From contig CAWJXK010000004.1 of assembly GCA_963846855.1 (NCBI GenBank), forward strand, positions 380,307 through 444,306: a stretch of 64,000 nucleotides of DNA, written 5' to 3'. The stretch is from an uncultured beta proteobacterium. GTDB lineage: Bacteria; Pseudomonadota; Gammaproteobacteria; Burkholderiales; Casimicrobiaceae. Of this stretch, positions 10,882 through 50,626 are shown piece after piece; position 1 is the first letter of the stretch, and every line of letters starts with the position of its first letter. The position numbers and the translations under genes were made by a program. Under the pieces are notes generated by a model. That model saw nothing but the letters and a program-made list of their open reading frames with translations. It ran no database searches and was not told where the DNA came from.

Positions 10882-11442
10882 TCAGCCGCCGAGCATCGCC
10901 TTCTTGAGATCCCCCTGAACCGGATCGTCGCCGAGCCATGCGTTCAGCAGCGCCTTGTTGAACGCCTCGCCGGGGATGGTGCCCTTCGCGGCTCCGTTGA
11001 CCAGCACCACGGTCGCGCCGTCGACGAAGTCGAATGCGAGCACGTTGCCTTCCTTGAGCTGCCCAGCCGACTTCAGGATCGACGCGAGCTGATCCGTCTG
11101 CGCCTTCACGGCCGCGACGTCCGCGGGAGGGTTGCCCTGCTTCACGCCGTCGGCGAGCGCTTCGGTCATCTGTTCCGCGCTGACGTCGCGCAGCATGTTG
11201 AGCTGGACGCGGCGCGGCGCCTTCGCGAAGACGGCCGCGGCGGTGGTCGCCTTCGCCGGAACCCAGAGACTGCCCACGTAGACCTTGAACATCATCTTGG
11301 TGCGGATGCCCGCGCCGTTCAGCACGAGCTCCTGCCCGCCGACGGCGGCCTTGTCGGCGAGCTTGACGCCGCCCATGTCGAGCGCGAGTGCGGGTGCCGC
11401 GAAGAGAAGTGCCGCCATCAGAAAAACAAGTTTGCGAAACAT
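10882..11442 (-). CDS. chalcone isomerase-like (fatty-acid-binding fold) periplasmic protein
   Basis: 186 aa with a signal peptide, then VKLADKAAVGGQELVLNGAGIRTKMMFKVYVGSLW, typical of bacterial CHI-like proteins. Confidence 0.65.
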   Translation of the reverse strand: MFRKLVFLMAALLFAAPALALDMGGVKLADKAAVGGQELVLNGAGIRTKMMFKVYVGSLWVPAKATTAAAVFAKAPRRVQLNMLRDVSAEQMTEALADGVKQGNPPADVAAVKAQTDQLASILKSAGQLKEGNVLAFDFVDGATVVLVNGAAKGTIPGEAFNKALLNAWLGDDPVQGDLKKAMLGG

Positions 11443-43552: not shown

Positions 43553-43561
43553 GACTTGCGG

Positions 43562-43765
43562 ACGGGGAAGCAGGGGGAACGCGCGAGCGGCGAGCAGGGG
43601 CCCCGCGCACATTTCGCGCGGGGATGCGAGCAATCGCGAGCCGCGTTCGGAGGCCGACCGCTGGCCACCCGCACGCCAAGCGCGTGATGGAGGCCGAACC
43701 GCGCGCGGAGCGCGCGGGGATGCGGCCCGGAGCAAGGCCAGGCGGCCGACAACGCGACCTTCACT
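43562..43765 (+). repeat. dispersed ~205-bp intergenic repeat, copy 2
   Basis: Colinear with 236-440. The hairpin stems differ, but complementarity is preserved. Confidence 0.75.
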
Positions 43766-43855
43766 CCACAACGACGGTCGCGGAAGGCCGCGCGGCTCCA
43801 AAAGGTGAGCCACCACCCTGTATGACGGGTCGCGGAAGGCTGCGGCGCGCCGCAA

Positions 43856-44794
43856 TCAGCGTCGCGGCGGCGATTTCGCAACCGCATCGGCCTGCACCTT
43901 CGCAAGCAGCTCGGCGGCGCACGCGAACACGCCCGCGTCGGCCAGCAGCGCGTTATGCGCGACGCCGACGAAGTCAACTTCTTCCGAGCCGTCCCAGCGC
44001 GCGCTGAGCTGCGGGATGACCATCGAGTCGTGCCAGCTCCAGAGCGCGACGCAGCGCACACCCGGCGGCGGCGCGTCACGGTTGAGGCGCTCGAGCCATT
44101 CGCCGCCAGGGCGCATTTCGCCGAGGCAGGTTCCCGGGAACATTCCCGCGAGAATGCTGCCGCGGTGCGGCGTCCCGATCGTCACCACTGCACGGATCCC
44201 GTCCGTTCCGTAACGGCGCAGGTATGCGCGCGCGACGAGACCTCCCATGCTGTGACAGAGCAGCGTGACGCCGGAGGCGCCGGTCGCGGTCCTGATGGCC
44301 GCGACCTTTTCCGCGACCTGCGCGGCGAATATTTCGATCGAGGCCAGCGGCGGCCCGTACGACAGCGTGTACAGCGGCCCGATGCCGCGCTCGCGCAGAC
44401 GTTGCATGAAAGGAAACCAGACGCCGGCGTTGCAGCCGATCCCGTGCAGCAGCAGCACCGGCGCCCCGGCAGGCGCAGGCGCGGGCTCGCGCATCAGCCA
44501 CCAGCGGAATCCCATCCGGATCGGCGATCCGGCGATGCAACGCACCTCGGTCAGGAAGCATCCTACGGCGCGCCACGACCCGATTCGCTTGTCCGGCGGC
44601 CGCGGCGAACGGTGAATCCATGCGATCGCGAACCAATAGGTGACCGCGACGAAGGGAACCGCGAAATACGCCGCGACCGCGCCGAGGATCACGAGCGGCC
44701 ACGGCGCACCCTGCGCGATCGCGTGCGCGCCCCACGCCGCATAGGCGGCAGCGCCAAGCAGATACAGCGCAGCCAGTGTGACGGCGGTGATCAA
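43856..44794 (-). CDS. membrane-anchored alpha/beta-hydrolase (lipase/esterase-like)
   Basis: Two N-terminal hydrophobic helices, HGIGCN, and the nucleophile elbow HSMGG. The TTG start lies 9 bp after the regulator's stop codon. Confidence 0.75.
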   Translation of the reverse strand: MITAVTLAALYLLGAAAYAAWGAHAIAQGAPWPLVILGAVAAYFAVPFVAVTYWFAIAWIHRSPRPPDKRIGSWRAVGCFLTEVRCIAGSPIRMGFRWWLMREPAPAPAGAPVLLLHGIGCNAGVWFPFMQRLRERGIGPLYTLSYGPPLASIEIFAAQVAEKVAAIRTATGASGVTLLCHSMGGLVARAYLRRYGTDGIRAVVTIGTPHRGSILAGMFPGTCLGEMRPGGEWLERLNRDAPPPGVRCVALWSWHDSMVIPQLSARWDGSEEVDFVGVAHNALLADAGVFACAAELLAKVQADAVAKSPPRR

Positions 44795-44803
44795 ATCAGC
44801 GCG

Positions 44804-45745
44804 TCATCGCCGGGCCACAGCCGCTTCCGCGGCCTGCGGAAAATGCGCGCGCCAGCTCTTGAGCGCGCCCAGCACCGCGGCGAGCTCGGGGATCAGCACG
44901 ACGCCCGGCAGCGTCTTGCGCACGCGGCGCGTCATCTCGCCGCCCGCCCACAGCGTCATGCCTTGCGGCAGCTGCCGGCGCAGCGTCGCGAGACCGTCGC
45001 TCGCCTGGCGCACCGGAAAGGCCGCCGAGAACGACAGCGCGAGGATGTGCACCTCATGCGCGAGCGCGGCGCGGCGAATGTCCTCGAGCGGCGTCTGGAC
45101 GCCGAGCGAGATGCATTGCGTGCCCTCGGGCACGAGCATCGCCTCGACCATCAGCAGGCCAAGCCCGTGGTGCTCGCCCGGAAACGTCGTCAGCAGCACG
45201 CGCGGCGTTCCTGTCTGGCGCGGAAAGGAATTGATCGCGGCACGGAGCACGGCCTGCATCTGCTCGGTGTAAAGATGCTCCTCGAACACCGGAAGCTCGC
45301 CGCGCATCCACGCGTCGCCGATCGCGCGGTTCAACGGCGCCAGCGACTCCTGGACGAACCGCTGCAGCCCCTGCTTCATGATGAGGTTCGCGAGCGAATT
45401 CTGCAGCGCGGTGACGTCATGCGCGCGCAGCATCGCCAGCACGTCCTTCTCGATGACGGGCGTGGACGTGTCGGCGCGCGCTGCGGTTCGCGCTTCGGCC
45501 AGCGTGTTGAGCGCCTCCTGCGTCGCGTGGATGATCTTGCCGGGGCGCAGGCCCACGTCCATCAGGCGCTTGATCGTGCGCAGCTTCTCGATCTCGGAAA
45601 CCGAGTACTGGCGCTCGCCGTTCTCGTCGCGGCCGGGCTTGGGAAAGCCGTAGCGACGCTCCCACATCCGCAAGACGTCCTTGGACAGGCCGGTCTCGCG
45701 CTCGACTGCGCTGATATTGAGAATGATGCTGTGGGAGGGGTCCAT
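44804..45745 (-). CDS. MerR-family regulator with a C-terminal cobalamin-binding domain (CarH/LitR-type photoreceptor candidate)
   Basis: MerR HTH (ISAVERETGLSKDVLRMWERRYGFPKP). It carries the W-x9-E-H motif (WMRGELPVFEEH) and the E-x-H-x-x-G motif (EHHGLG), followed by ...ALSFS... and WAGG. Confidence 0.75.
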   Translation of the reverse strand: MDPSHSIILNISAVERETGLSKDVLRMWERRYGFPKPGRDENGERQYSVSEIEKLRTIKRLMDVGLRPGKIIHATQEALNTLAEARTAARADTSTPVIEKDVLAMLRAHDVTALQNSLANLIMKQGLQRFVQESLAPLNRAIGDAWMRGELPVFEEHLYTEQMQAVLRAAINSFPRQTGTPRVLLTTFPGEHHGLGLLMVEAMLVPEGTQCISLGVQTPLEDIRRAALAHEVHILALSFSAAFPVRQASDGLATLRRQLPQGMTLWAGGEMTRRVRKTLPGVVLIPELAAVLGALKSWRAHFPQAAEAAVARR

Positions 45746-45816
45746 CGACGCGTTCTTTGTTCAGGGTTGGCGGGCGAAACCGGCCCTGAATCGGCAATTG
45801 TCGAACAAAATTTGCG

Positions 45817-45833
45817 TTATGTCCAAGACATAA
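45817..45833. promoter_or_regulatory. perfect 7-3-7 palindrome upstream of the CarH-like gene (candidate operator)
   Basis: TTATGTC-CAA-GACATAA, 72-88 bp upstream of the start codon, in an AT-richer stretch. Confidence 0.4.
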
Positions 45834-46130: not shown

Positions 46131-46161
46131 TTTGACCAAGGCGTGGGCGATCGCCTATACT
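46131..46161 (+). promoter_or_regulatory. candidate tRNA promoter
   Basis: TTGACC (46131-46136), a 19-nt spacer, then TATACT (46156-46161), 10 nt before the tRNA 5' end. The spacer is one to two nt longer than optimal. Confidence 0.4.
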
Positions 46162-46171
46162 TGCGGCCCTT

Positions 46172-46248
46172 GGCGAATTAGCTCAGCTGGTTAGAGCAGA
46201 GGAATCATAATCCTTTGGTCCGGGGTTCGAGTCCCTGATTCGCCACCA
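46172..46248 (+). tRNA. tRNA with anticodon CAU (elongator Met, or Ile2 if lysidine-modified)
   Basis: A 77-nt cloverleaf folded by hand: acceptor GGCGAAU/AUUCGCC, D-arm GCUC..GAGC, anticodon stem GAGGA/UCCUU with loop AUCAUAA (CAT at 46206-46208), T-arm CGGGG-UUCGAGU-CCCUG, and an encoded CCA. Met versus Ile2 cannot be decided by eye. Confidence 0.9.
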
Positions 46249-46290
46249 AAAAAACAACGGCCTGCAGCGATGCAGGCCGTTTTGTCTTGC
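46248..46290. terminator. bidirectional rho-independent terminator (tRNA / DUF2950 gene)
   Basis: aaaaaaa-acggcctgca-gcga-tgcaggccgt-tttg. Confidence 0.75.
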
Positions 46291-46310: not shown

Positions 46311-47210
46311 TTACTTCTGCGGCACTTTCGACCAGGTCGAATCAGGGTTGAATTCTTTCATCGCCATTGCGACCGAACTTCCGTTCGGGCCGAGATCCTT
46401 CTCGTAGACGGTGCCGTCCTTGCCGGCGATGAACGTCATCACGCCCGTGTCGCCCCATTTGACCGGCCATGCGACGAACGCGTAGCCACCGGTCATCGCG
46501 CCGTTGGCGACATAACTCAATGCGCCGCCGGGCGCGTCCTTGCCCTGCGCCGTCAGCACCCGGTAGCGATAGCCGTGATAGCCCTGGCCCGGCTTCACCG
46601 TCGCGACTTCGGAACCCAACGGGCTCTCGGGCTCGCCCGGCTTCGTCGGCCAGTAAAGGCCGTCCCTCTTTCCCTTGGTCGAGATGATGCGTGGCGCGTA
46701 GTCGTTCTTGCCATTCTTGTCGCGGTCGAACTTGCGGTAATCCTCTTCCGCGTCCCCGCATGCGAGCACGACCTGGATGGCGTTGAGCTCGTTGCGGCCG
46801 ATGCGCCGGATGCGCAGCTCCTCGGGCGTCGCCTGCGTGTCGAACGACCAGCCCGCCTCGGACTTGACGATCGGGATCGGCAGCGTCCAGCCGTTTGTGC
46901 CGACCTCGAGATACGCCTTAGCGTCGCCCGCCTGCACGATCTTGTGGGACTTCGCCCATGCCGCGAGGAAGTTGGTCACGCTGTTCGCGGTCCGGTGCGG
47001 AATGTATTTCGCGTAATCGGCGCCGACGATGGCCTTGAGCGCGTCGCCGTCGTTGGCGGCGAGGCTCTGGACAAATGCGTTTGCCGCGGCATCCGGCGTC
47101 GGATACGCCTTTTGCGCCTGCGCGGCGGGAGCGATCACCAGGGCACACGCGCCGAGCGCCAACGCGAGGCCGCGCGTGGCGCGATTCAGGAGAGAGGATT
47201 GCGTTTTCAT
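46311..47210 (-). CDS. DUF2950-family secreted protein
   Basis: Signal peptide plus QKAYPTPDAAANAFVQSL...GWTLPIPIVK...GYAFVAWPVKWGDTGVMTF, as in DUF2950 proteins. I placed the start at ATG 47210. Confidence 0.75.
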   Translation of the reverse strand: MKTQSSLLNRATRGLALALGACALVIAPAAQAQKAYPTPDAAANAFVQSLAANDGDALKAIVGADYAKYIPHRTANSVTNFLAAWAKSHKIVQAGDAKAYLEVGTNGWTLPIPIVKSEAGWSFDTQATPEELRIRRIGRNELNAIQVVLACGDAEEDYRKFDRDKNGKNDYAPRIISTKGKRDGLYWPTKPGEPESPLGSEVATVKPGQGYHGYRYRVLTAQGKDAPGGALSYVANGAMTGGYAFVAWPVKWGDTGVMTFIAGKDGTVYEKDLGPNGSSVAMAMKEFNPDSTWSKVPQK

Positions 47211-47226
47211 TTTTCCGGTCTCCCTG

Positions 47227-48597
47227 TCAACGCCGCCCGCCGCCGCCACGGCCACCGCCACCACGGCCACCGCCGCCGCCCGACGGACGCGACGCACCGC
47301 CGCCCGACGGACGCGACGCACCGCCGCCCGAGGGACGCGACGCACCGCCGCCCGAGGGACGCTGCGCCTGCTGCATCGACCTCTGACTCGAGTTGCCACG
47401 GCTGATTTCGGTGCCCGCGCGGCGATCGGTAACGCCGCTCATGGCGTCATTGCGCGAAGGCGCTCCGCCTCGGTCGAAGCTCTGGGCCTGACCGCGACCC
47501 ACGTCGCGGTTCATGTTCTGCGCGCCGCCTCGGTCGAGGCTCCTCGCCTGCTGGTTGAGATTCCCGCGGTTGGCGTCGCTCAACGCGGCGCGATCCGTGC
47601 TGACGCCGCGGTTCTGCAGCGACTGCTGCGCGCGCTGGCGGTCGGCGTCCTTGCCGCGGTACTGGTCGCGATTGACCTGCTGCGAGCGGTTCTGCAGATT
47701 CTGCCGGGTCTGCTCGCCGCCGCGGTACGGCGTGTTCCTGCGATTCTCGACGTTGTGATTCCACTTCGCGTTGTTGATGTTGCCGCGGTTGATCTGGTTG
47801 TTGCGGTTGATGTTGTTGTAGCGGTTGACGTTGATGTTGACGTCGTGGTTCCACCAGTTGCACCCGCCCCACATCGCGTTGCGCACGCCGATGCCCACGC
47901 CCCACGCGATGCCCGTGATCACCGCCGCCGAGAACCAATAGCCCGGTGGATAAGGGATGTAATACGGCGGGTAGGCGGGGTACGGCCACGGCCCGTAGAC
48001 GTAGGTCGGGTTGTACGACGGAACGTAGATCACCTCGGGGCTCTTCTGCTCGATGACGATCACCTGCGGAGGCGGCGGTGGCGAGGCCGCCTCGACGACG
48101 ACGTCCGGCGGCGGCACGGTCTCGGTCGTGACGATAACCTCGTTGTTCGACTTGAGGTTGCCCGCCCTCTGCGCGGCCGCGCGCAGTCGCTGCACGGAAT
48201 CCATCACGGCGTCGGGCTGTGCGAGGAACGCGTCGCCCAGGTCCTTCACCCAATCGGGCTTCTCACCCATCATGATGATGACCTGCGGAAAGGCGACGAG
48301 CGACTGCACGCTCGGGTCCCAGGGCTGGTCCTGGACCTTCTCCACGGCCTCGTCGCCCTTGTCGTCCGCGTGGGCGCGTGACCATTTGGCGGCTTCGGCC
48401 ACGTCGGCCGGGTAGGTCGACGCCATCAGCACCTGCGACAGCAGCGCGTCCGGATACAGCGCGATCTGCGCGGTCATCTGGTCGAGCTGCTCCCTGGAGA
48501 ACGGCTTGTCGCCGGCCTGGGCGGCGGCGATCGCCGGAGCGGCGAGCGCCAGTGCCAGAAGCGGCCAGCGCAGCCAACGGCAGACAGAGGTCGTCAC
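47227..48597 (-). CDS. DUF3300-family secreted protein with a Gly/Arg/Asn-rich C-terminal tail
   Basis: FSREQLDQMTAQIALYPDALLSQVLMASTYP...VAFPQVI is the DUF3300 core. GTG start at 48597, preceded by AGGAG. The tail contains RPSGGGAS x3 and GGGGRGGGGRGGGGRR. Confidence 0.75.
   Translation of the reverse strand: MTTSVCRWLRWPLLALALAAPAIAAAQAGDKPFSREQLDQMTAQIALYPDALLSQVLMASTYPADVAEAAKWSRAHADDKGDEAVEKVQDQPWDPSVQSLVAFPQVIIMMGEKPDWVKDLGDAFLAQPDAVMDSVQRLRAAAQRAGNLKSNNEVIVTTETVPPPDVVVEAASPPPPPQVIVIEQKSPEVIYVPSYNPTYVYGPWPYPAYPPYYIPYPPGYWFSAAVITGIAWGVGIGVRNAMWGGCNWWNHDVNINVNRYNNINRNNQINRGNINNAKWNHNVENRRNTPYRGGEQTRQNLQNRSQQVNRDQYRGKDADRQRAQQSLQNRGVSTDRAALSDANRGNLNQQARSLDRGGAQNMNRDVGRGQAQSFDRGGAPSRNDAMSGVTDRRAGTEISRGNSSQRSMQQAQRPSGGGASRPSGGGASRPSGGGASRPSGGGGGRGGGGRGGGGRR
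47273..47368. repeat. 4 x 24-bp in-frame tandem repeat at the 3' end of the DUF3300 gene
   Basis: Units ccgccgcccga(c/g)ggacgcgacgca begin at 47273, 47297, 47321 and 47345; the last is degenerate. Confidence 0.85.
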
Positions 48598-48746
48598 GGG
48601 AACTCCTGAGGAGCTTGGTTGCGCGTCGCTTCCGCGCAAAGGACTCTTGATCGGGGTGCGTCGCGGATTCTAGCGAACCCACGCACACGCGTCCATGCGC
48701 TGCCAGGGTTCGCTCGATCCTGCACGTCCTCTGGCAGAATGCGGCG

Positions 48747-49364
48747 ATGCCCGCTCCGGGATTCGCCGCCGACCTCGAAGGACATCGCGCCTACCTGCTG
48801 CGGGTCGCCCGACTGCAGTTGCGCGACGACGCTCAGGCCGAGGATGTCGTGCAGGAAACCCTCGTCGCCGCGCTGTCGGGCGCCGGATTCTCCGGCAAGT
48901 CGAGCCTCAAGACCTGGCTCACGGGCATCCTCAAGCACAAGATCGTCGATGCGATCCGACGCAAGCAGCGCGAGCCGCAGGCCGCGAGCACGTTCGGCGA
49001 CCTCGACGACGAGCTCGACATCGAGGACTTCGACGCGATGTTCGACCGCACGGGCCACTGGAGCCCGAAGCCGGCCGCCTGGGGCGATCCGGAGGACGCG
49101 CTCGATCGCCGCCAGTTCATCGAGATCGTCGACTTCTGCCTGGAAAAGCTGCCTCCCAACACGGCCCGGGTATTCATGATGCGGGAGGTGCTGGAGCTCG
49201 AGACCGCCGAGATCTGTAAGGAATTGGCGATCACCCCGAATAACCTCTGGGTGATCCTGTACCGGGCCAGGATGGCGCTCCGGCTGTGCCTCGAGCAGAA
49301 CTGGTTCGCCGCCGACGCGCCGCGCCGCGGCGCGGCCGGACCGGGGACTCCGGCTGCCCGTTGA
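48747..49364 (+). CDS. ECF-subfamily RNA polymerase sigma-70 factor
   Basis: Region 2 (AEDVVQETLVAAL...WLTGILKHKIVD) and region 4 (ARVFMMREVLELETAEICKELAITPNNLWVILYRAR). Confidence 0.88.
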   Translation: MPAPGFAADLEGHRAYLLRVARLQLRDDAQAEDVVQETLVAALSGAGFSGKSSLKTWLTGILKHKIVDAIRRKQREPQAASTFGDLDDELDIEDFDAMFDRTGHWSPKPAAWGDPEDALDRRQFIEIVDFCLEKLPPNTARVFMMREVLELETAEICKELAITPNNLWVILYRARMALRLCLEQNWFAADAPRRGAAGPGTPAAR

Positions 49365-49369
49365 CCGTC

Positions 49370-49552
49370 ATGTTCGGAAGCTCATTCTCCTGCCGGGAAA
49401 TCTCACGCCTCGTCTCGCGGCTGCAGGACGCGCCGCCCAGCTCGTGGGAGCGCGTGAAGCTGCGCCTGCATCTCACCTTCTGCGACGCCTGCACGCGATT
49501 CGACGCGCAGATGCGCGTGCTGCGCGAGGCGATGCGCCGCTACCGCAGCTGA
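49370..49552 (+). CDS. zf-HC2 anti-sigma factor (60 aa, no transmembrane segment)
   Basis: H-x3-C-x2-C motif (HLTFCDAC). Lies 5 bp after the sigma gene. Confidence 0.7.
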   Translation: MFGSSFSCREISRLVSRLQDAPPSSWERVKLRLHLTFCDACTRFDAQMRVLREAMRRYRS

Positions 49553-49581
49553 CGCCGCCGGCGCGCGTATCATGGCGCCTC

Positions 49582-49788
49582 ATGGTCTCACTCATGGTCA
49601 ACGGCGAAGCACGAACTCTGGCCTCGGAGTCCGCGAGCGTGGCCGCGCTGGTGCGCGAGCTCGGGTTCGAGGGCAAGCGCGTGGCGGTCGAGCGAAACGG
49701 CGAAATCATTCCGAAGAGCCTGTACGACGTAACGGCGCTCGCCGACGGCGACACGCTCGAGATCGTCCGCGCGGTGGGCGGCGGCTGA
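49582..49788 (+). CDS. thiS: sulfur carrier protein ThiS
   Basis: ~66-68 aa ending in ...GDTLEIVRAVGGG. An alternative start is at 49594. Confidence 0.85.
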   Translation: MVSLMVNGEARTLASESASVAALVRELGFEGKRVAVERNGEIIPKSLYDVTALADGDTLEIVRAVGGG

Positions 49789-49810
49789 CCCGGCGCGGTA
49801 AAATCCTGCC

Positions 49811-50626
49811 ATGAACGCTCCGCACCAAAGGGCCGACACTGCTTTTGCCGATCCGCTGCTGATCGCCGGCCGGGCCTACCGCTCGCGCCTTCTGGTCGGC
49901 ACCGGCAAGTACCGGGATTTCGGCGAGACGCGCGCCGCAATCGTCGCCTCGGGCGCCGAGATCGTGACCGTGGCGATTCGCCGCACCAACATCGGTCAGG
50001 ACCCGCATGCGCCGTCGCTCACCGACGCGCTGCCGCCCTCGGAATTCACCTATCTGCCCAACACGGCCGGCTGCTACACCGCCGACGACGCCGTGCGCAC
50101 CCTGCGGCTCGCGCGCGAGCTCCTCGACGGTCACACGCTGGTCAAGCTCGAGGTGCTGGGCGACCCGAACACGCTGTTCCCGAACGTGCGCGAAACGATC
50201 AAGGCCGCGGAAACGCTGGTCGGTGAAGGCTTCGAGGTGATGGTGTACACGTCGGATGATCCGATCATCGCGCGCGAGCTCGAGGCGATCGGCGTCGTCG
50301 CAATCATGCCGCTCGCATCATTGATCGGCTCCGGGATGGGCATCCTCAATCCATGGAACCTCAAGCTCATCATCGCCGACGCCAAGGTGCCGGTGCTGGT
50401 GGACGCGGGGGTCGGCACGGCCTCGGATGCCGCGATCGCGATGGAGCTCGGCTGCTCGGGCGTGCTGATGAACACGGCGATCGCGCTCGCCACCGACCCC
50501 GTGCGCATGGCGCGCGCGATGCGGCTCGCCGTCGAAGCGGGACGCGAGGCCTTCCTCGCGGGACGGATGCCGCGCAAGCTCTACGCCGCAAGCCCCAGCT
50601 CGCCCGACGCGGGCCGCATCGGCTGA
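49811..50626 (+). CDS. thiG: thiazole synthase
   Basis: 271 aa with [14 protein letters not shown] and [16 protein letters not shown]. Confidence 0.92.

Follow-up and report, generated by a model that had tools for sequence, protein, structure and literature searches.

The CarH/LitR photoreceptors have, to our knowledge, been characterised almost only as switches of carotenoid genes. The subject of this work is a regulator of this kind and the lipase-like hydrolase encoded directly behind it, found at 43856–45833 of a 64-kb stretch of DNA from an uncultured beta proteobacterium of the Casimicrobiaceae (contig CAWJXK010000004.1, positions 380,307 to 444,306). This whole stretch is called the window, and all positions are given in its coordinates. 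The DNA binding of CarH-type proteins depends on adenosylcobalamin (AdoCbl) (PMC8156234). The sequence criteria published for distinguishing CarH homologues from the B12-independent CarA are a recognition helix RxWERRY, a Wx9EH motif and a B12 motif with a His ligand, the last of the form D/E-x-H-x2-G/P-x41-S-x-T/V-x22-27-GG (PMC8156234, PMC9304148). The operators of the Thermus and Bacillus CarH consist of three to four tandem 11-bp direct repeats, nAnnTnnACAn, and are described as plastic (PMC8156234). In class II LitR proteins the Rossmann domain is absent, and the light-induced LitR targets in Pseudomonas include phrB, ufaM, folE and cryB (PMC9758184).

Judged from its sequence, the regulator in the window is a member of the known CarH/LitR class I; its putative operator is palindromic, which is not canonical, and its constant target is unstudied. 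We consider it likely that the locus holds a complete light switch of this class, in which the regulator represses its own operon and a membrane-anchored lipase from the same operon takes part in photo-oxidative membrane-lipid turnover. The mechanistic side of this proposal, i.e., B12 binding, the response to light and the type of oligomer, is what we infer by homology.

The regulator (44804..45745, minus strand) has 313 amino acids and is composed of a MerR-type winged helix-turn-helix (wHTH), a four-helix bundle with the Wx9EH motif and a Rossmann B12-binding domain. The Pfam matches are MerR_1 at residues 10-76 (E 1.7e-14), B12-binding_2 at 101-169 and B12-binding at 182-273. Class II proteins have no Rossmann domain; with its two B12 domains and the His ligand, the regulator has the architecture of class I. 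All three published sequence hallmarks of CarH were located by regular-expression checks: the recognition helix as R26-M-W-E-R-R-Y32, the intact cap motif WMRGELPVFEEH as W146-x9-E156-H157, and the B12 motif EHHGLG, including the His ligand, as E191-x-H193-x2-G196-x41-S238-x-S240-x27-G268G269. Across 25 homologues the recognition helix is invariant, and no variation was found at W146, E155/E156/H157, E191, H193 and G196.

The best sequence match in the PDB is the CarH/LitR of Thermus thermophilus (5C8D/3WHP, E ~6e-33 by phmmer over query residues 7-256). In this alignment AWMRGELPVFEEH of the regulator stands opposite AWHRGEIGVAEEH of CarH, that is, W131, E141 and H142, which form the cap over the 5′-deoxyadenosyl group, and GEHHGLG stands opposite GERHEIG, so that H193 is aligned with the lower axial ligand H177. 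The original prediction of a 313-aa MerR-family protein whose W-x9-E-H and E-x-H-x-x-G motifs correspond to the cobalamin-contacting residues of CarH is thus borne out by the open reading frame (ORF), the Pfam domains, the motif positions and a residue-for-residue alignment. The AlphaFold 2 (AF2) model of the regulator comprises the wHTH, four helices and a five-stranded Rossmann fold, and the top 12 Foldseek matches of this model are all full-length CarH chains (E ~1e-15).

The second gene of the locus encodes a hydrolase of 312 amino acids with a TTG start (43856..44794, minus strand), which was classified as a family-I-lipase-like alpha/beta-hydrolase with N-terminal hydrophobic segments. 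As originally predicted for this HSMGG alpha/beta-hydrolase, it starts 9 nt past the regulator stop codon, and its homologues begin at the same position. The Pfam matches are Abhydrolase_1/6, Palm_thioest, PGAP1 and Lipase_2, and the nearest solved relatives are the Burkholderia cepacia lipase (E 5.5e-9) and the Bacillus LipA. The catalytic triad of Ser182 (C-H181-S182-M-G184), Asp256 and His280 is invariant among 20 hydrolase homologues. Two segments, residues 1-20 and ~30-60, are strongly hydrophobic, and a stretch of positive charge comes after them; this points to a membrane anchor and suggests that the catalytic domain is held on the cytoplasmic face. The hydrolase gene follows the regulator gene on the same strand in 63 out of 63 informative relatives, for each of which 3.2 kb or more of downstream sequence was available, and a tight two-gene operon is supported by this gene order.

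Upstream of the regulator lies a putative operator, the perfect 17-bp palindrome TTATGTC-CAA-GACATAA (45817..45833), which had also been pointed out at the start, at 72-88 nt before the regulator ATG. Further copies were sought in the window and none was found; the palindrome is the sole match in the 64 kb even with two mismatches allowed, and it occurs in none of 100 shuffles. The palindrome encloses the core TGTC-N3-GACA (45820..45830), which is shared by the family. The relatives examined are the best 80 of 593 confirmed loci from a scan of a genome collection, with 64–98% identity and up to 10 kb of flank each. In 1.35 Mb of these loci, the core (mostly TGTCyTGGACA) was observed 103 times against 12.6 copies expected from composition. 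Nearly all copies are located within ~125 nt upstream of the regulator, and at least one exact copy is present there in 69 of 81 loci.

The right half of the operator contains the predicted -35 hexamer TGGACA (45820..45825, minus strand), which matches the -35 consensus at five of six positions. An independent promoter scan of the window gave TGGACA (from 45825), a spacer of 17 nt and the -10 hexamer GACAAT (45797..45802, minus strand), and thus a promoter that coincides with the operator half. At the latter position most relatives have TACAAT or TACGAT. Promoter geometry was compared in 65 loci, in 52 of which a -10-like hexamer (TACAAT, TACGAT, TAGAAT etc.) follows TGGACA after 16-18 nt, while a control shifted by 8 nt gave 0/65. 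In silico, the palindrome therefore has the features of a conserved operator placed over the -35 box of a sigma-70-type promoter, a geometry expected of a repressor. The predicted transcription unit is limited upstream by a strong bidirectional GC-rich hairpin with T-runs (46256..46281), which would terminate both the DUF2950 gene (minus strand) and the tRNA-Met gene (plus strand).

In the relatives, the 5′ leader has a second core, shortly ahead of the start codon and 63 bp further downstream than the first. This copy is exact in 23 relatives and has one mismatch in 19 more, so that the two-site layout is found in 42 of the 65 loci, and a TGTCAA half-site often stands 11 nt upstream of the second core. 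The arrangement in the window is a variant of this layout: the distal site is extended to the perfect 17-mer, and the promoter-proximal site has decayed to the remnant AACCCTGAACA (45758..45768, minus strand), in which four of the eight specified bases differ.

The palindrome might also be bound by another factor, or be a -35 region of accidental symmetry, with the MerR-B12 protein acting elsewhere. The spacing would fit such a view, as the TGT and ACA centres are only 8 bp apart, which is short for a classical MerR dimer, and so would the mismatch to the CarH direct-repeat consensus. The fit to nAnnTnnACAn was tried and rejected: TnnACA of one half-site matches, and a tandem 11-bp array is missing. 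This explanation is nevertheless very unlikely. The site travels with the regulator gene regardless of what lies upstream, be it a glutathione peroxidase (GPx), an amine oxidase, a tRNA or a permease gene; both half-sites are conserved, and in 23 loci the second copy keeps its exact distance. CarH/LitR genes are, moreover, typically autoregulated. The half-site ends in ACA as the CarH repeats do, and LitR operators are TGTACA-based (PMC8156234, PMC9758184).

A position weight matrix (PWM) built from the sites of the relatives gave a single hit of at least 10 bits in the 64-kb window, namely the regulator promoter with 22.2 bits. Nine stray exact cores elsewhere in the flanks of the relatives lie inside ORFs or next to them. 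On both counts, the cis-regulon within reach would be limited to the regulator's own operon.

Several further observations concern this upstream region. The possibility that the -35 box is shared with a divergent, leftward gpx promoter was rejected, as a -10-like hexamer at 16-18 nt to the left occurs in only 3 of 47 gpx-bearing loci. A conserved element, AGTATAGCA, stands ~12 nt to the left of the distal operator in L056, L058, L067, L073 and L080 (handles of individual relatives) and cannot be assigned, with standard spacing, to the regulator promoter or to a leftward one. Five other loci, L011, L039, L043, L052 and L079, have no exact operator core; what they share upstream of the regulator is the string TGATTCCTCTGCTCTAA, whose distance varies from 136 to 254 nt.

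The gene content of the locus in the relatives provides a second line of evidence. Two kinds of genes are inserted in the operon. The first, in 27 loci, is a gene between regulator and hydrolase whose product has a weak, partial match to PF03405 (acyl-ACP desaturase). The identification as an acyl-ACP desaturase was not retained, since there is no significant PDB match (acyl-ACP desaturases score E ~0.5), and the product is described here as di-iron and desaturase-like only. The second, in five loci, encodes a photolyase-related (DPRP) protein of 515-553 aa directly after the regulator (PF04244, E 3e-71). PF04244 is a family which we take to be that of the CryB/PhrB FeS-BCP-type photolyases.

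Upstream of the regulator, a divergent GPx gene is present in 51 of 80 loci. In ~27 of the 80 it opens a divergent operon, GSHPx - Amino_oxidase (ufaD-like) - DUF1365 (ufaO-like) - CMAS - Chalcone_3, whose carriers include L004, L006, L008, L014-L016, L021, L024, L028, L033, L035, L038, L047, L048, L082 and L084, among others. In 16 of the 80 loci the upstream genes include GCHY-1 (GTP cyclohydrolase), whose place in this operon is between GSHPx and Amino_oxidase. DUF1365 corresponds to UfaO. In Rhodobacter, the ufaD-ufaO operon is part of the singlet-oxygen regulon, and its products build furan fatty acids on phospholipids (PMC7380195). The surroundings of the regulator family are thus classical photo-oxidative-stress genes, and this speaks independently for the sensing of light.

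No carotenoid or photolyase gene lies in the window. This part of the original prediction was confirmed by Pfam scans for these families over 48 candidate ORFs across the 64 kb and by a tblastn search with the photolyase-related protein of a relative, neither of which gave a match. It had been argued from this absence that a lipase would be an unusual output for such a photoreceptor. The lipase operon is supported, but the claim of an unusual output has to be softened, as the relatives pair the same regulator with DPRP, GPx, GCHY-1, ufaD/ufaO-like and CMAS genes. Because the regulator sits with classical light-response genes in the relatives, the lipase would be one member of an ordinary photo-oxidative-stress regulon, which in the window appears reduced to regulator and lipase. 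In the window and in its nearest relatives, L001, L002 and L081, the partner genes are lost or relocated, and a tRNA-Met gene is found upstream instead. The window additionally has a DUF2950/DUF3300 pair upstream.

Some observations weigh against a light switch of the CarH type. First, the AF2 model has a pLDDT of 67.6, i.e., moderate confidence only, and was therefore used for the fold assignment alone. Second, the regulator deviates from Thermus CarH in three respects: the third position of the B12 motif is Ser240 instead of Thr/Val; the residue after the cap Trp is Met, where Thermus CarH has the His of the bis-His light-state adduct; and, as read from the alignments, the Arg176/Asp201 dimer salt bridge is replaced by His(Gln)192/Gln217. 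Third, the operator is an inverted repeat and not the tandem 11-bp direct repeats of the Thermus and Bacillus CarH, and the oligomeric state and the binding mode may therefore differ from theirs. Fourth, neither a cobalamin riboswitch nor, in the Pfam scans, a cob/btu gene was found in the window. Fifth, the window has none of the accessory light-stress genes.

The sequence deviations are typical of a large clade. Regulator homologues with at least 72% identity number in the hundreds, and the named ones come from Casimicrobiaceae or from metagenome-assembled genomes (MAGs) of uncultured Betaproteobacteria. The wider clade was collected by an exhaustive HMMER search (E<=1e-30) and clustered at 50% identity into 768 clusters, and its motif statistics refer to 145 full-length representatives. 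Wx9EH is present in 136 of the 145, and all three motifs are kept in 120. S-x-S is the norm of the clade (112 of 129 representatives), and a His after the cap Trp was found in one of 136.

The absence of an equivalent of the light-state residue His132, together with the lack of photolyase or pigment genes in the window and the AdoCbl dependence of DNA binding in CarH-type proteins (PMC8156234), could also be read in another way: the regulator may be a dark sensor of AdoCbl availability or a general stress repressor and not a physiological light sensor. This is very improbable in view of the Wx9EH cap, which is specific for the photolabile 5′-deoxyadenosyl ligand and invariant in the 25 homologues. 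The photolyase-related gene inserted into the operon in relatives, and the pairing of the operon there with ufaD/ufaO, GPx and GCHY-1, which represent functions induced by light or singlet oxygen, also speak for light as the cue. Among the inspected loci, none has a gene for a B12-dependent enzyme or for B12 transport linked to the regulator. A LOV gene was seen neither in the window nor in the inspected neighbourhoods.

The light switch that we favour would operate as follows. In the dark, the AdoCbl-loaded regulator would oligomerise and bind the palindrome over the -35 box of its own promoter, RNA polymerase would be blocked, and the operon of regulator and lipase would be off. Ultraviolet (UV), blue or green light would photolyse the Co-C bond, leading to disassembly of the oligomer, release of the operator and transcription of both genes. 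Light would also switch on the photolyase-like and di-iron genes within the operon of the relatives. The system would be reset when fresh regulator and fresh AdoCbl restore the repression. Under photo-oxidative stress, the lipase is envisaged to act on membrane glycerolipids, e.g., through the excision or turnover of acyl chains that are oxidised or of the furan type. A role of the hydrolase in the membrane is suggested because its constant companions are enzymes of membrane lipids and peroxides; that its substrates are photo-damaged or furan-type acyl chains in particular is a plausible proposal to which we give somewhat less than an even chance.

The locus adjoins a contiguous lipid-metabolism island (11418-43552), whose order and orientation are kept across most of the 80 relatives. 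Its beta-oxidation part comprises a thiolase, two FadB-like proteins, FadL, a FadE-like protein with ACDH_C and a TetR regulator. The rest encodes three acyl-CoA ligases, a GMC oxidoreductase, two phasins, a patatin, a TetR regulator, a TPR protein, a DUF7933 protein, WS/DGAT, ACBP and a FAR of 677 aa with a fused C-terminal SDR domain. This neighbourhood underlies the original suggestion that light and B12 may control lipid hydrolysis or lipid-body turnover. Spelled out, light and B12 would gate the mobilisation of wax-ester or neutral-lipid bodies, and the lipase would hydrolyse wax esters or triacylglycerols from the FAR/WS-DGAT/phasin/ACBP/patatin cluster. The operon does abut a large lipid island, the hydrolase is lipase-like, and the FAR cluster follows it within 6 kb in 49 of 57 informative relatives.

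Such adjacency, however, weighs little, as the unrelated thiG and ECF sigma genes upstream are conserved in their position to the same extent. FAR is convergent to the hydrolase gene and not co-transcribed with it, and eight of the 57 relatives keep the regulator-hydrolase pair without a FAR cluster nearby. No operator precedes FAR, WS/DGAT or phasin genes, either in the window by the PWM or in the 80 relatives. The variable partners of the operon are, in addition, photo-oxidative-stress and not storage-lipid genes. On these grounds (convergent FAR, equally conserved thiG and ECF sigma genes, relatives without the cluster, no operator) the adjacency of the FAR cluster is taken to reflect lineage synteny and is not counted in favour of co-regulation. 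The findings do not support a control of wax-ester bodies by light, which we regard as unlikely.

The intergenic region between the convergent FAR and hydrolase genes (43553-43855) contains a GC-rich REP-like element. A second copy is located at 239-398 of the window (~73% over 160 nt), and at the equivalent place in L003 (12986-13766) the element is amplified in tandem copies ~119 bp apart. For the region 43553-43855 no intrinsic terminator was predicted and no plasmid match was found.

On the other side of the locus, the tRNA-Met (CAT) gene (46172..46248, plus strand) lies divergent to the regulator, at the position that the GPx gene has in most relatives. Its promoter is of a near-consensus sigma-70 type, TTGACC-18-TATACT (46132-46161), and the hairpin at 46256-46281 lies behind it. 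The DUF2950 and DUF3300 genes (46311-48639) have the ECF sigma gene on one side and the tRNA on the other; their ORF calls overlap by ~170 nt, in a region that codes for repeated SGGGASRP units at the DUF3300 C-terminus. The pair is missing from this place in the nearest relatives L002 and L081 and therefore looks like a local insertion. The ECF sigma factor gene (48747-50626) belongs to a block that many relatives keep in synteny upstream of the regulator; in L081 (7506-9154) a 60-aa zf-HC2 anti-sigma-like ORF, thiS and thiG come after the sigma factor gene. The LitS protein of Streptomyces is a sigma factor linked to the light response. A lone Chalcone_3 gene in the window (10882-11442) adjoins DUF6352/DUF6265 genes.

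The locus introduces no new principle; it is of interest for a possible new participant in the light-dependent biology of membrane lipids. The sequence here reveals the cis-regulon, in which lipid-handling and peroxide-detoxifying enzymes come together, in bacteria without linked pigment genes. The compact system of one operator, one promoter and two genes offers access to light effects on the membrane lipids of a non-pigmented soil bacterium, and a natural AdoCbl switch of this minimal kind, with its short palindromic operator, could serve optogenetics. The lipase family is a candidate for the missing step in the turnover of furan or oxidised fatty acids. More tentatively, and as a possibility that we hold to be rather doubtful, the regulators may form a large unstudied proteobacterial CarH-type clade with a palindromic two-site operator and without the bis-His ligand, in which the membrane-anchored lipase is the invariant target in Casimicrobiaceae-like members and light triggers membrane-lipid repair or signalling. 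If this is true, the lipase would remove acyl chains that are photo-oxidised or of the furan type from phospholipids, in concert with GPx and the ufaD/ufaO furan-fatty-acid enzymes, as a bacterial counterpart of the phospholipase A2 (PLA2) and GPx route of lipid-peroxide repair. In the literature that was searched, nothing relevant was found on CarH/LitR-controlled lipases, hydrolases or GPx.

Among the known systems, the hydrolase is comparable to the family I lipases of B. cepacia (1HQD/3LIP) and Bacillus (LipA, 1I6W), with which it shares the alpha/beta core, the (A/C)HSxG elbow and the Ser-Asp-His triad. The similarity is weak (E ~5e-9 over ~110 residues), and, unlike these lipases, the protein does not have a secretion signal but an N-terminal extension of ~100 residues with two hydrophobic segments, and is probably membrane-anchored.

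The closest system for the regulator is the CarH of T. thermophilus (5C8D/5C8E/5C8F), its best match in both sequence and fold. The two proteins share the three modules, RxWERRY, Wx9EH and the lower-ligand His; in both systems the operator covers the -35 box of a sigma-70-type promoter and the gene is apparently autoregulated, which for the present locus is a prediction. In contrast to CarH, to which it is ~30% identical, the regulator has Trp-Met and not Trp-His, His/Gln-Gln for the Arg176-Asp201 pair and Ser for Thr/Val. The three tandem 11-bp direct repeats of Thermus are replaced here by an inverted repeat of 11-17 bp, with a second copy in the relatives. The targets differ as well: carotenoid genes in Thermus, and here putatively the lipase, joined in the relatives by GPx, ufa-like and photolyase-like genes.

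Also comparable are the class II LitR proteins PplR1 of Pseudomonas putida and PmlR2 of Pseudomonas mendocina, proteobacterial MerR/LitR repressors which control a non-carotenoid light regulon overlapping the gene set of the relatives (PMC9758184). In the footprinted class II promoter of P. mendocina, too, the -35 box and the 5′ leader have one site each, and the half-sites are of the TGT...ACA type (PMC9758184). The differences concern light perception, as class II LitR has kept the four-helix bundle but no functional Rossmann B12 domain and a LOV partner senses the light, whereas the regulator described here has a complete B12 domain, and the operator, which is TGTACA-N12-TGTACA in class II and TGTC-N3-GACA here (PMC9758184).

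A further comparison is offered by the RpoE-ChrR regulon of Rhodobacter sphaeroides with its ufaD-ufaO operon (RSP1091-1087), the counterparts of which are the divergent ufaD-like, ufaO-like and CMAS genes of the relatives (PMC7380195). Genes of these three kinds are absent from the 64-kb window. The control in Rhodobacter is exerted by an ECF sigma/anti-sigma pair and not by a B12 photoreceptor, and no lipase is described there (PMC7380195). The theme common to both systems is the modification of the acyl chains of membrane phospholipids against photo-oxidation.

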